DNA from: Naegleria gruberi
Lineage: Eukaryota
Length of the DNA: 3,888 nucleotides
Direction: 5' to 3' (one strand)
Assembly: GCA_000004985.1 (NCBI GenBank)
Contig: GG739204.1
Positions within the stretch are counted from its first letter, which is position 1. Every line of letters begins with the position of its first letter. This document shows, piece after piece, positions 1 to 3,415 of this stretch. Made by a program: the position numbers and the translations under genes. A model generated the notes under the pieces. The model was not told the origin of the DNA and made no database searches. It was given only the letters and a program-made list of their open reading frames with translations.

Positions 1-117
1 ATGCTTTAATATCAATTTCACATTCATAATGAAAGTAACATTTTACCCTTAGACCCACAGTCATTTAAAAGTTTAGAAAATCAAAATATCGGCCTTACCA
101 TTATTCCAACTGACCAC

Positions 118-717
118 TTGATTCGTATTGTGAAACCAGTACAGTGTAAAATCTGTGAGAGCACAAATATACATTTAAGAGAAATTACTAAAAATGGATT
201 TGAACAGATATTCCGTTTTACTTGTTTGGCTTGTAATACGGTATTTGTTTTTAGAACATGTCCAAGGAATCTTAAATTGAATAGACATATTATTCAATCA
301 TTTGAACTCTCGAACTCTACCTATGAATCATTTAAAACATTTACAACCCTTGTCGGATTGCCAATAATTAATAAGAAATCATATTATCAAGCAACAAACA
401 AGTTATGGAGCAGTAGTAGTCAAGTATTAAATCAAGAAATGGACAAGGAATTGGAAAAGATTGCAAATCAGAAAATGAAACAAGTGCTTGGTTCTTTAAT
501 TTCTGCATTTGAACTGGGAAGAGAATGTTGTAGAGTTGCGAGGAACTATTCAACGTTAGTATTTCGACAAATTGTAAACAATAAAATTGAGTTGATAAAT
601 AATTTTATGCTCAAAAAAATTAAGTATATTGAAATGGTTCAAACACCAAGCAAGGCGAATAAAGTCAATGACCTAAAAGGCAGCATTTCTGAGCAACATA
701 CCTCATCCTTTGGATGA
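118..717 (+). CDS. Zinc-ribbon protein resembling the N-terminus of an IS1595/Merlin (IS1 InsA-like) transposase. Possibly the 5' part of a disrupted transposase gene; there is no ATG start (TTG in the track).
   Basis: Frame 1 is open from nt 10 (a TAA sits at 7-9) to the TGA at 715-717. That is 236 codons in 32% GC DNA, where the expected random ORF is about 13 codons. Residues C10-x2-C13-x22-C36-x2-C39 (nt 145..234) read CKICESTNIHLREITKNGFEQIFRFTCLACNTVF. This matches the C-x2-C...NG...R(F/Y)xC-x2-C...F pattern of the Zn_Tnp_IS1595 / IS1 InsA zinc ribbon. A possible HTH-like stretch follows (TLVGLPIINKKSYYQATNKLW). There is no in-frame ATG before codon about 107. The ribbon lies about 10 residues after the TTG at 118, as in bacterial IS1595 transposases, but no SD motif is seen. 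Confidence 0.45.
   Translation: MIRIVKPVQCKICESTNIHLREITKNGFEQIFRFTCLACNTVFVFRTCPRNLKLNRHIIQSFELSNSTYESFKTFTTLVGLPIINKKSYYQATNKLWSSSSQVLNQEMDKELEKIANQKMKQVLGSLISAFELGRECCRVARNYSTLVFRQIVNNKIELINNFMLKKIKYIEMVQTPSKANKVNDLKGSISEQHTSSFG
145..234 (+). other. C4 zinc-ribbon motif (C-x2-C-x22-C-x2-C) within ORF1
   Basis: Direct translation gives TGT 145-147, TGT 154-156, TGT 223-225, TGT 232-234. A KNG motif lies between the Cys pairs and RFTC immediately precedes the second pair. Confidence 0.6.
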
Positions 718-787
718 AGAATATGTTGAGTGAGCTTTTACCCATTGGTTTATCAACGATTGTTTTATTGTTTCTTTTGGAGAAATA

Positions 788-1080
788 TTTTAAAACCACA
801 AAATAATAAAATAATAAATTAAGACAAATGGATTAAAAGTTCAAGGATTGAGACACCATTTGGTGAATCAACCTTGGAACCTGCTTTAAAGGATATAAAT
901 CTTTATTTAGCAGGTCCCTAGAAATTAAAGTGTTTTTAAAACCACAAAATAATAAAATGATAAATTAAGACAAATGGATTAAAAGCTCAAGGATTGAGAC
1001 ACCATTTGGTGAATCAACCTTGGAACCTGCTTTAAAAGGATATAAATCTTTATTTAGCAGGTCCCTAGAAATTAAAGTCT
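788..1080. repeat. Tandem direct duplication, two units of about 145 and 148 bp (788..932 and 933..1080), roughly 97% identical
   Basis: Read directly. ttttaaaaccacaaaataataaaat[a/g]ataaattaagacaaatggattaaaag[t/c]tcaaggattgagacaccatttggtgaatcaaccttggaacctgctttaaa[-/a]ggatataaatctttatttagcaggtccctagaaattaaagt[g/c] occurs twice head-to-tail. There are only 4 differences. All of them fall outside the two internal inverted repeats. Confidence 0.9.
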
Positions 1081-1388
1081 CAAAATTATGAAAAACTTAT
1101 CGATAGTTTTGAAGCTAAAGATAAGAAAAAACATAGAGTATGTGAATAAATTGTAAAACCTGTTCATAAAATCACCATTAGTATATAAAAATCTATATGA
1201 ATTTTCTGAAACAAATGGAATGAAAAATAAAATGATTCGAATCTATTAGAAACTGTCATCCAAAAAATAAGTTAGTGAATAAATGTAAAAATTGCACATC
1301 TTGAATGTACACAGCTGCACTCTGAAATTAGCCCACTTACTGGATGCTAATGAGCGAAAAAGGCTGAAAAATTGTAAATACTAATTAA

Positions 1389-1405
1389 GGGTGGGTATGG
1401 GTGGG
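1389..1405 (+). other. Canonical G-quadruplex-forming motif G3-N1-G3-N3-G3-N1-G3 (GGGTGGGTATGGGTGGG)
   Basis: Four GGG runs at 1389-1391, 1393-1395, 1399-1401 and 1403-1405 with loops T, TAT, T. The surrounding DNA is only about 32% GC, so the motif stands out. It lies about 145 bp upstream of the ORF2 ATG. Function is not inferable from sequence. Confidence 0.5.
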
Positions 1406-1493
1406 ACTTTGCCTTAATGATGACATGATGTTGAGACTATTTTTTGAGCATAATTTTTAAAATAATATTTTAATAATTTTGTATAAAAACACT

Positions 1494-1524
1494 AGTTCTT
1501 CACCATGTTCAGAACTCCCAGTTC
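1494..1524. promoter_or_regulatory. Cluster of AGTTC/GAACT half-sites in alternating orientation (AGTTC..GTTCaGAAC T ccc AGTTC), 25 bp upstream of the ORF2 start. Candidate protein-binding site or small hairpin.
   Basis: Read directly. agttc 1494-1498; palindrome gttc-a-gaac 1507-1515; gaact 1512-1516 and its reverse complement agttc 1520-1524, which form the hairpin gaact-ccc-agttc. A regulatory role is inference only. Confidence 0.25.
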
Positions 1525-1548
1525 CGGCATTGATTTACTCCTTCATTC

Positions 1549-2649
1549 ATGATGCAATATTTTTGGATATCAGTTGATGCAAGATATTCATCTAGGAGAA
1601 ATGTTTACGAATGTACTCTTGTGGTATTCGAAACAAAGGCAAAAAAAACAATTGAACGATCACACGTTATCAAGAAAAGAGCATCTAATAGAAAAAGTGC
1701 CTTACAATGGTTTATGGGAGCCTCTAAATTAATGGAGCCAGAAGCATGTCGTTTAGCAATTACATCTTTGAAACACAAGTCATTTCCAGTAATGGGTTAT
1801 GGTATTTTACATTTCAAAATTGGCTCTTTTGTTCATGACAAAGACTCAACTGTGGCAGCAGTCATCAAAAAATTAGAACCAACAGCATTAGAAAAGTTAG
1901 ATCCAAATCATGTAATCAAAAATCTGAGCAAGGAAGTAGAAGAAAAAGCACCCCGTATTGCCAGTATTATTGTATCATCCTTTAGGAAAGCTCTAAAATT
2001 AGCCAACACCACCACTAATTCAAATGAGAAACTCCAAGCATTATTGAAAGCTTATCCACAACATTTACAAAATAACCATTCTCTGTGCGATTCAGGTTGT
2101 CCACACACAATTAAACCAGAAAAATTGATCACTAAAGAGGAAGCACAAGTTGTTAAAGAAATATTTGACAAACGAATCAAATATAGTCACAAATTTTGTG
2201 ATATTGCATGCAATAGCCAAAACAATGAGTCCATACATAGTACTATTTGTCATACAACACCAAAGACATTAGATTTCAGTCGAAATTATTGTGGAAGAGC
2301 TGATCTGGCAATAGGTGAACGATTGCTTGGAAAATTTGCACAATTAAGAAAAATTCAAAGATTTATTGGTAGTCTCTTCGTGATTCCAAAAGAGCAGGCC
2401 ATCAAGTTAGATACTCAATATCATCAGGATAAAATAAGGAAACAGTCTAAAGCTTATAAGGAAAGAAGAGTGGAGCTTCGGAAAACAAAACTTAAGGTAA
2501 AAGAATCTCCACAGCCAAAGGGAACAATTGGAAGTTGCACATGTTCGAAGGGTTCGACATGTACAAAAGCTTGTCCATGCAGAAAAGCCGGGAAATCATG
2601 TACTTCCAAATGCTCTTGTTCTCTTACCAAATGTCAAACAAAAGTTTGA
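1549..2649 (+). CDS. 366-aa Lys-rich protein with a degenerate IS1595/Merlin-like DDE transposase-core region at its N-terminus, a central Cys/His cluster, a basic NLS-like linker and a C-terminal CXC-type cysteine module. Candidate inactivated or domesticated transposase.
   Basis: Frame 1 is open from 1534 to the TGA at 2647-2649, 372 codons, which is highly non-random in AT-rich DNA. From memory of the DDE_Tnp_IS1595 consensus: LVVFETK resembles vEiDEty, with the first D replaced by F27. FVHDKDS resembles i(T/H)Dgw (D97). LDPNH resembles tVNH. IIVSSFRKALKL resembles NtIEsfWsllKR, with the E position occupied by S. The spacing from first D to second D is about 70 residues. The same HD(K/N) motif also resembles the Tc1/mariner HDNA second-D motif, so the family call is tentative. 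C-terminus: K/R-rich KIRKQSKAYKERRVELRKTKLKVK, then CTCSKGSTCTKACPCRKAGKSCTSKCSC..C. Confidence 0.55.
   Translation: MMQYFWISVDARYSSRRNVYECTLVVFETKAKKTIERSHVIKKRASNRKSALQWFMGASKLMEPEACRLAITSLKHKSFPVMGYGILHFKIGSFVHDKDSTVAAVIKKLEPTALEKLDPNHVIKNLSKEVEEKAPRIASIIVSSFRKALKLANTTTNSNEKLQALLKAYPQHLQNNHSLCDSGCPHTIKPEKLITKEEAQVVKEIFDKRIKYSHKFCDIACNSQNNESIHSTICHTTPKTLDFSRNYCGRADLAIGERLLGKFAQLRKIQRFIGSLFVIPKEQAIKLDTQYHQDKIRKQSKAYKERRVELRKTKLKVKESPQPKGTIGSCTCSKGSTCTKACPCRKAGKSCTSKCSCSLTKCQTKV
2536..2634 (+). other. C-terminal 9-Cys module C-x-C-x5-C-x3-C-x-C-x6-C-x3-C-x-C-x4-C, resembling a tesmin/TSO1 (CRC/CXC) domain
   Basis: Translated directly (TGC 2536-2538 ... TGT 2632-2634). The Cys spacing closely follows the CXC consensus C-x-C-x4-C-x3-YC-x-C-x6-C-x3-C-x-C-x2-C, except that Ala occupies the Tyr position and two loops differ by 1-2 residues. 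A metallothionein-like C-x-C cluster is an alternative reading. Confidence 0.45.
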
Positions 2650-2950
2650 CTTGTAATAATAGATGATTTTTTATTAAAATTGCTAAATTTGTAATTTTGC
2701 CAATAATAGATATTCGAATATTTGTAAACCAACATTTGCACTTCCAATTAAAATAGGTAGACCGCCACCTTAAGGGGTAAATAAATGTAATCTGAACAGA
2801 TAAATGAATTTTCGAGGAATTATGATGAAAAGGATGTAGTGAGAATGGGATTTGATAAAGAGAAGATAAGTAAAAAACATGATGAGGAGTATGATGAAGA
2901 ATAATAGGGAAATGATTTTTCTAACATAGATAAATATAATTTTTGTTCAC

Positions 2951-2974
2951 ATATATATATATATATATATATAT
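2951..2974. repeat. (AT)12 dinucleotide microsatellite
   Basis: Read directly: atatatatatatatatatatatat at 2951-2974. Confidence 0.95.
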
Positions 2975-3133
2975 TCACCCAATAATTTATCAAAAAAATA
3001 AAATACAAAAAATCAATTCTCATATAACAACAAAATAAATTGTGAATATATACAAAAATTAAATTCAAACTCGAATTTAGATCGAGAAACACACTAAACC
3101 ACCAAACGGTACTACTAAGATAAGAATTACAAT

Positions 3134-3415
3134 ATGATGCATGCAATGTATGAGTGCACAATAGATAACCTCGTCAAGCTGTTGGCCATTACATTATCTG
3201 TATGTTTATTGATAGTCATGGTTATTTTCTCTGTCTACCAGTTTAAACTCAAAGGAATGGAGTTTGTTAGTTCTCTCATAGTGGGTGCTCATGTTTCCAT
3301 TCAGTTTTGGATGGATACTCATGAAGAAAGTTATAGTTCAGAAGTTTCTAAAACGGTTGAAAAATACTGCGCAGAAACCAACCATCATCATGATCAGATA
3401 TTAAAATCCATCTAA
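3134..3415 (+). CDS. Hypothetical 93-aa protein with one predicted transmembrane helix (LVKLLAITLSVCLLIVMVIFSVY) and a His-rich C-terminus (NHHHD)
   Basis: ATG ATG start at 3134 with A at -3 (acaatATGa). A TATATA element sits at about 3047-3054, roughly 80 bp upstream. A 23-residue hydrophobic stretch is present. The ORF length is only marginally significant in AT-rich DNA. There is no recognisable homology. Confidence 0.25.
   Translation: MMHAMYECTIDNLVKLLAITLSVCLLIVMVIFSVYQFKLKGMEFVSSLIVGAHVSIQFWMDTHEESYSSEVSKTVEKYCAETNHHHDQILKSI

Follow-up and report, generated by a model that had tools for sequence, protein, structure and literature searches.

Kolobok transposons duplicate a TTAA target, have 5'-RR/YY-3' termini and occur in Naegleria (PMC9587614). 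Their transposases share the C/DxxH motif with those of hAT, P, MuDR and Dada elements, and in all lineages except Kolobok1 they have a zinc finger between this motif and the catalytic Glu, with a highly conserved Cys in the third position, that is absent from MuDR, P and hAT (PMC9587614). The Repbase-based Kolobok alignment in Supplemental Data S5 of the same paper lists the proteins Kolobok_1_NaeGru_1p and Kolobok_2_NaeGru_1p. Mutator-like elements (MULEs) are characterized by 8-11-bp target-site duplications and usually long terminal inverted repeats (TIRs; PMC6446971). Here we describe one complete, unplaced Naegleria gruberi contig (GG739204.1) of ∼3.9 kb, which was analyzed over its full 3888 bp and is referred to as the window. 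As judged by its sequence, the window holds a copy of Kolobok-1_NaeGru, a member of the Kolobok superfamily that is already curated in Repbase and is not new. With a probability of about 0.8, this copy is truncated on its 5' side by the contig, has a transposase gene broken in the linker by three lesions, and is most likely non-functional. Its parts are given below, where ORF1 is the upstream member of two long open reading frames (ORFs) and P0002 is a 649-residue N. gruberi paralog.

1..2769, + strand: Kolobok-1_NaeGru copy, cut on its 5' side by the contig start and reaching its own 3' terminus
10..489, + strand: N-terminal transposase part in frame 1, with zinc ribbon and helical region; homologous to P0002 through ...KMKQVL
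490..606, + strand: stretch of the host element, stop-free in frame 1; lacks significant homology, to the linker profile too
1458..1460, + strand: TAA in frame with ORF1 (insert removed) and with the frame-3 linker, as read from the sequence
1461..1574, + strand: transposase linker in frame 3, NNILIILYKNTSSSPCSELPVPALIYSFIHDAIFLDIS; a helix and the start of strand β1, leading into the first catalytic Asp
1572..1578, + strand: frameshift site AGTTGAT, with 2 nt missing relative to the curated protein, e.g. AGT[GT]TGAT
1573..2649, + strand: catalytic core and C terminus in frame 1; 68% identity to P0002 residues 281-643
2536-2634, + strand: Cys-rich CXC module at the transposase C terminus, followed by the stop, CTCSKGSTCTKACPCRKAGKSCTSKCSCSLTKC
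2756..2769, + strand: 3' terminal inverted-repeat end with a YY-3' terminus, GGTAGACCGCCACC, ...CACC/TTAA
2770..2773, + strand: TTAA target site adjoining the 3' terminus

The preliminary description of this DNA, made from the letters alone, had pointed to two unusually long ORFs in frame 1 of DNA with ∼32% GC, separated by a stop-rich stretch with a tandem duplication. These observations hold. At a GC content of 31.7%, frame 1 is free of stops over 10-717 (ORF1, 235 codons and a TGA) and over 1534-2649 (ORF2, 371 codons and a TGA), stops crowd all frames between the two, and a 146-bp unit is present twice at 788-1078. The probability of a stop codon in the window is ∼0.08 per codon, and so open runs of 235 and 371 codons are not chance. 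In hmmscan searches the sole Pfam match of ORF1 was to PF20700, "Mutator-like transposase" (profile positions 4-135 of 357, E 5e-10), and ORF2 alone gave zero Pfam matches. When the two ORFs were joined, they gave a single continuous match to PF20700 (profile positions 5-351, E 6e-17). A protein search identified P0002, which spans 99% of the joined ORFs and is colinear with them from end to end; ORF1 is 48% identical to P0002 residues 83-244 by BLASTP, and ORF2 is 68% identical to residues 281-643. The continuous profile match and the colinearity with P0002 bear out the proposal that the two ORFs are parts of one interrupted transposase gene. An exhaustive HMMER search returned 87 relatives of P0002, namely a third N. 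gruberi protein and metagenome proteins.

The family assignment follows from the catalytic core. Between FLDISVDARY and NNESIHS (FLDIS being read in frame 3 and VDARY onward in frame 1), 224 of 228 residues are identical to Kolobok_1_NaeGru_1p from the same organism, and the window is therefore assigned, at the level of sequence, to this curated family. The remaining 4 mismatches look like errors of PDF machine reading, which we assume them to be. The window copy differs from Kolobok-1_NaeGru in lacking the 5' end, in a TAA that falls in frame, in the 845-bp element nested in it and in a 2-nt frameshift that separates FLDIS from VDARY. P0002 is Kolobok_2_NaeGru_1p. It has the same layout from zinc ribbon to CXC tail, with the identities of 48% (N-terminal part) and 68% (core and tail) given above, but is uninterrupted and has a 36-residue linker and 82 extra N-terminal residues.

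The transposase is predicted to begin with a zinc ribbon and a helical region, which presumably bind DNA; a short, structured linker then leads to the RNase-H-like DDE core and the CXC tail. The zinc ribbon that had been noted at the N terminus consists of CKIC (145-156) and CLAC (223-234), and its CxxC...CxxC columns are kept in relatives (alignment A1). The DDE-type motifs that had been seen in ORF2 are likewise present, as VDARY (1573-1587), HDKDS (1834-1848), DPNH (1900-1911) and NNES (2221-2232). Specifically, the triad consists of the Asp at 1576-1578, an Asp in HDKDS and the Glu of NNES (2227-2229), and DPNH is the C/DxxH signature. Between DPNH and the catalytic Glu lies an H-H-C-C finger, H-x4-H-x2-C-x3-C, at 2062-2100 (HLQNNHSLCDSGC), which includes HLQNNHSLC. 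His-400 of the signature and His-453, His-458, and Cys-461 of the finger are at least 90% conserved in alignment A2. Among the 36 relatives in that alignment the near-invariant columns are D284, D376/D378, H400, H453, H458, C461, and E508, and the window retains all of them. The window thus shares the C/DxxH core and the finger before the Glu with the Kolobok superfamily (e.g. Kolobok-1_XT and the T2 MITEs (miniature inverted-repeat transposable elements) of Xenopus), and its one visible end, a YY-3' terminus next to TTAA, would agree with the superfamily's TTAA target and 5'-RR...YY-3' termini. On the portion of the element that the contig covers, neither KolX nor another accessory ORF was seen.

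What distinguishes the Naegleria elements, and their relatives from metagenomes, from Kolobok elements in general is a Tesmin-like CXC or CCHC module at the C terminus. The CXC module of the window matched PF03638 (Tesmin/TSO1-like) weakly, with an E-value of 0.054, and one relative matched it with an E-value of 7.6e-6. The module is kept in P0002, P0020, and P0021; in other relatives a CCHC knuckle takes its place. DNA binding would be the role of both the zinc ribbon and this CXC tail. This tail is possibly new, one of only two such items at the locus, the other being the nested TIR element. DEDDh exonuclease domains, which have been described for the KolobokD lineage, are present in two of the relatives.

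No ATG heads the first ORF, as the preliminary description had observed. The start codon is missing because the contig begins inside the gene: P0002 has 82 N-terminal residues beyond the window's start of homology, and the gene accordingly continues past the contig's 5' end. A TAA is present at 7-9, two codons before the first residue aligned with P0002 (YQFH...); P0002 itself reads on as ...QNQS. This TAA may be one more lesion, or the sequence may be poor where the contig begins.

At the other end of the copy, the sequence ...GACCGCCACC/TTAA at 2756-2773 is homologous to the termini of relatives, and the 5' end of the copy lies beyond the contig. It has 3 mismatches in 18 nt to the TIR of the P0088 element (in metagenome contig L002), a match that was found in 0 of 200 shuffles. 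When reverse-complemented, it reads TTAA GGTGGCGGTCT and shares an identical stretch of 11 nt with the left end upstream of the P0010 gene in L001; this left terminus was located by motif search, and an inverted-repeat scan of the surroundings of the L001 gene found none of at least 14 nt. The match to the termini of relatives shows that the transposon ends at 2769, 120 bp past the stop codon. The identical 2.4-kb P0088 element is found at 3 different sites in ENA metagenome contigs, with perfect 16-bp TIRs (GGTAGCGGTACACCAC) and TTAA abutting each end, and looks like a recently active Kolobok element. Its copies are as follows.

L002, 783-3199: P0088 element copy, metagenome contig
L003, 73-2489: P0088 element copy, metagenome contig
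L004, 1-2417: P0088 element copy, metagenome contig
L005, 124-2540: P0088 element copy, metagenome contig

By analogy with the superfamily, binding of an intact transposase to the GG...CC termini would lead to excision of the element and its insertion at TTAA.

The gene is interrupted by foreign DNA, as had been proposed. Nevertheless, the borders given for the insert, 718 and 1533, were wrong: they are the ends of the ORFs, which are not the limits of the element. A scan for TIRs and target-site duplications placed it as follows.

601..606, + strand: left AATTTT target-site duplication
607..1451, no strand assigned: nested non-coding element of 845 bp with perfect 12-bp TIRs, ATGCTCAAAAAA / TTTTTTGAGCAT, or 14 bp counting the adjacent TT/AA
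788-1078, + strand: tandem duplication inside the nested element, 2.0 x 146 bp, 97% identical (Tandem Repeats Finder)
1452..1457, + strand: right AATTTT target-site duplication

A perfect 12-bp inverted repeat with a flanking duplication of at least 6 bp occurred, anywhere in the window, in 7 of 2000 Markov-simulated windows (0.35%). The first 111 bases of the nested element lengthen ORF1 by chance, and excision of 607-1457 (851 nt) brings the frame of ORF1 into phase with the frame-3 linker. No tRNA or Rfam families were detected in the insert, its translated pieces had no match in the protein collection, and in tblastx it matched the transposase coding parts no better than shuffles did. On this sequence evidence, the nested element is most likely an unrelated DNA transposon or MITE with TIRs and a target duplication. 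It may be a minor new repeat in a genome reported to have a very low transposon content, 0.28% (bioRxiv 10.64898/2026.06.24.734286).

Three other readings of the insert were rejected. An alternative 9-bp target-site duplication, AATAATTTT (598-606 / 1472-1480), would make the right inverted repeat non-terminal. A degenerate direct duplication of 572-718 at 1455-1600 scored no higher than other AT-rich windows of the contig. Pieces of the insert (∼1170-1330), considered as decayed transposase copies, likewise did not score above other AT-rich windows, and tblastx was comparable with shuffles. An imperfect 86-bp palindrome at 1423-1508 (72% self-complementary) extends across the right TIR, the target duplication and AT-rich host sequence.

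Homology to P0002 ends near ...KMKQVL (nucleotide 489) and restarts at VDARY. In relatives, including the uninterrupted metagenomic ORFs of L001 and L002, the linker between these points ends in a helix (LPxEI..I..F-like) and strand β1, and the 36-residue linker segment of P0002 is confidently folded in its AlphaFold2 model. The frame-3 segment of the window ends in ...SELPVPALIYSFIHDAIFLDIS, in which AIFLDIS matches P0002 AIPLDIS directly before VDARY. It adds ∼19-20 bits to the full-length family-profile score, and ∼19 bits when P0002 is left out; its shortness and hydrophobicity kept it from significance when it was scored alone and unanchored. Its assignment as the putative linker is supported by its anchored position beside VDARY, by the ∼19 bits in the full-length profile, and by the curated protein, since the alignment entry of Kolobok_1_NaeGru_1p begins with FLDISVDARY. 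The occurrence of FLDISVDARY in that protein together with AIFLDIS in frame 3 indicates that two bases are missing at ∼1574, where the Ser codon of frame 3 (1572-1574) overlaps the Val codon of frame 1 (1573-1575).

The stretch 490-606 is open for 39 codons, for which the chance probability is ∼0.04, and either is the fast-evolving beginning of the linker or belongs to a small ancestral intron. As a candidate family linker, the tail of ORF1 (residues 159-235) was not significant (p ∼0.03 with P0002 in the profile and 0.24 without it). That both ORFs lie in one frame, a point on which the preliminary description had relied, is true as read but is partly coincidence. The ancestral frame upstream of VDARY is frame 3 (1461-1574), and thus the frame-1 codons 1534-1566 are not ancestral coding sequence. 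The same-frame ORFs arise because, on the left, frame 1 reads through into the insert and, on the right, a stretch that is open in frame 1 overlaps the frame-3 linker.

The preferred reading of the interruption is decay of the gene, and its order of events would be the following. An 845-bp non-coding element inserted at AATTTT and later duplicated 146 bp internally; the in-frame TAA at 1458-1460 is the second lesion; and the third would be the loss of two bases immediately ahead of the codon for the first catalytic Asp, leaving the linker in frame 3 and the core in frame 1. The copy would accordingly encode no functional transposase. Several points weigh against this account or its parts. The Kolobok copy shows just one of its ends, and the machine-reading origin of the 4 mismatches to the curated protein is an assumption. 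The putative mobility of the nested element is read from the geometry of its TIRs and target-site duplication, and a 6-bp duplication points to no particular superfamily. A sequencing error could account for the 2-nt frameshift, the contig being small and of low coverage. Finally, all three lesions lie within 491-1574, and the ∼1750 nt of flanking coding sequence have no stop or frameshift.

A cluster of lesions with clean flanks fits a spliced-out region too. We considered a spliceosomal intron, either identical with the interruption or enclosing it, in a gene that is still expressed. Canonical, phase-compatible GT/AG sites exist, with candidate donors at 490/491, 526/527, 529/530, and 554/555 and joins at 490/1574 and 554/1496. 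A single intron from GT (491) to AG (1573) would give KMKQVL-V-DARY and skip the insert, the TAA and the frameshift. In favor of an intron, the linker is short or absent in the distant relatives P0042 and P0007. However, the single intron deletes the conserved helix/β1 segment, which lowers the family-profile score by ∼20 bits, and it removes FLDIS, which the curated protein treats as coding. Alternatively, a small ancestral intron may have hosted the nested element, e.g. from AC/GTTAGT at 555 to CACTAG/ at 1495, 90 nt long before the insertion. The pre-insertion sequence of 555-1495 is very AT-rich and holds the TAA, and the window is ∼39 residues longer than P0002 at the linker; nevertheless, such short introns keep the 2-nt frameshift. 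The donors GTTCTT, GTTGTA, and GTAGAG look weak, and the metagenomic relatives are intronless at the linker (L001 and L002). On balance we regard an intron as unlikely. It is distinctly improbable that the 845-bp TIR element represents an undescribed MITE family that landed in, or created, an intron of a still-spliced, expressed Kolobok gene in an introner-like event. In a remoter variant, +1 recoding at AUC AGU UGA would join the frame-3 linker to the frame-1 core.

Two other superfamilies were weighed against the Kolobok assignment. The preliminary description had taken the gene for an interrupted Merlin/IS1595-like transposase, and the N-terminal CxxC...CxxC ribbon and the DDE-type motifs do bear a general resemblance to such enzymes. 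Against this, PF12760, PF12762, and the Tc1/mariner models gave no match at E ≤ 1 or at E ≤ 10 by hmmscan, with the single ORFs or with the joined constructs, and the specific matches were to PF20700; the lack of such IS1595/Merlin matches is the outcome that the preliminary description had named as refuting its reading. The 224/228 identity to a curated Kolobok protein, the C/DxxH signature and the ISCth4-like fold of P0002 (below) argue in the same direction. An 8-9-bp target duplication had been expected, but the one end in the window adjoins TTAA, which relatives duplicate. A Merlin/IS1595 identity is thus scarcely credible. A MULE in the strict sense would explain why the sole Pfam match is named "Mutator-like transposase", and the fold points the same way. 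In the AlphaFold2 model of P0002 (pLDDT, the predicted local distance difference test score, 79), the top match among solved structures was the IS256-family ISCth4 transposase (PDB 6xg8; Foldseek E 2e-5, probability 1.00), followed by RNase H and retroviral integrase cores; a sequence search against solved structures gave spurious matches only. IS256 is a bacterial relative of Mutator. ISCth4 and the eukaryotic Mutator-like elements resemble the window's family in the DDE core, which is RNase-H-like and into which a helical domain is inserted, although sequence identity of the P0002 model to ISCth4 is only ∼10% and the TM-score is 0.29-0.42. Two relatives also contain Ulp1-protease domains. 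Such domains are carried by some MULEs, and the C/DxxH motif is common to MuDR, hAT, P, Kolobok, and Dada. An IS256-related transposase with DDE and C/DxxH is indeed present, yet this feature does not discriminate between MULE and Kolobok. The features that do differ favor Kolobok, and a MULE is very improbable: Repbase curators file the sequence as Kolobok, TTAA, and not an 8-11-bp duplication, adjoins the window's terminus and, at three sites, those of a relative, the TIRs are short (14-16 bp), and an extra zinc finger separates C/DxxH from the catalytic Glu. The matches of PF20700 (10-2100 in the window) include curated Kolobok transposases with TTAA targets; its "Mutator-like" label does not equate to MULE and can mislead superfamily assignment.

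The deposited gene model of the locus, P0001 (372 residues, exons 1552-2496 and 3242-3415), takes an ATG inside the transposase core as its start. Its splice from AAG/GTAAAA (2496/2497) to CCAG/ (3241) leaves out the conserved CXC tail and spans the transposon end (2769); the second part of the model is an unrelated 93-residue ORF without homologs. P0001 is probably a chimeric prediction, i.e. an annotation artifact, and should be treated as such, and the locus should be masked as Kolobok-1_NaeGru. The locus is ordinary decayed transposon DNA of a known family and has little importance beyond annotation. Two features lie downstream of the transposon.

3134-3415, + strand: ORF of 93 residues with a hydrophobic segment
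3416-3886, - strand: frame with several stops, ending in a 62-residue ORF

Apart from the self-match of P0001, the peptides of these two features had no homolog in a collection of 5.8 billion proteins. Just outside the transposon end, the region 2900-3100 is very AT-rich (GC ∼18-22%) and contains a (TA)12 microsatellite at 2951-2974. A minus-strand ORF of 113 residues at 2820-3161, probably spurious, crosses this AT-rich stretch.

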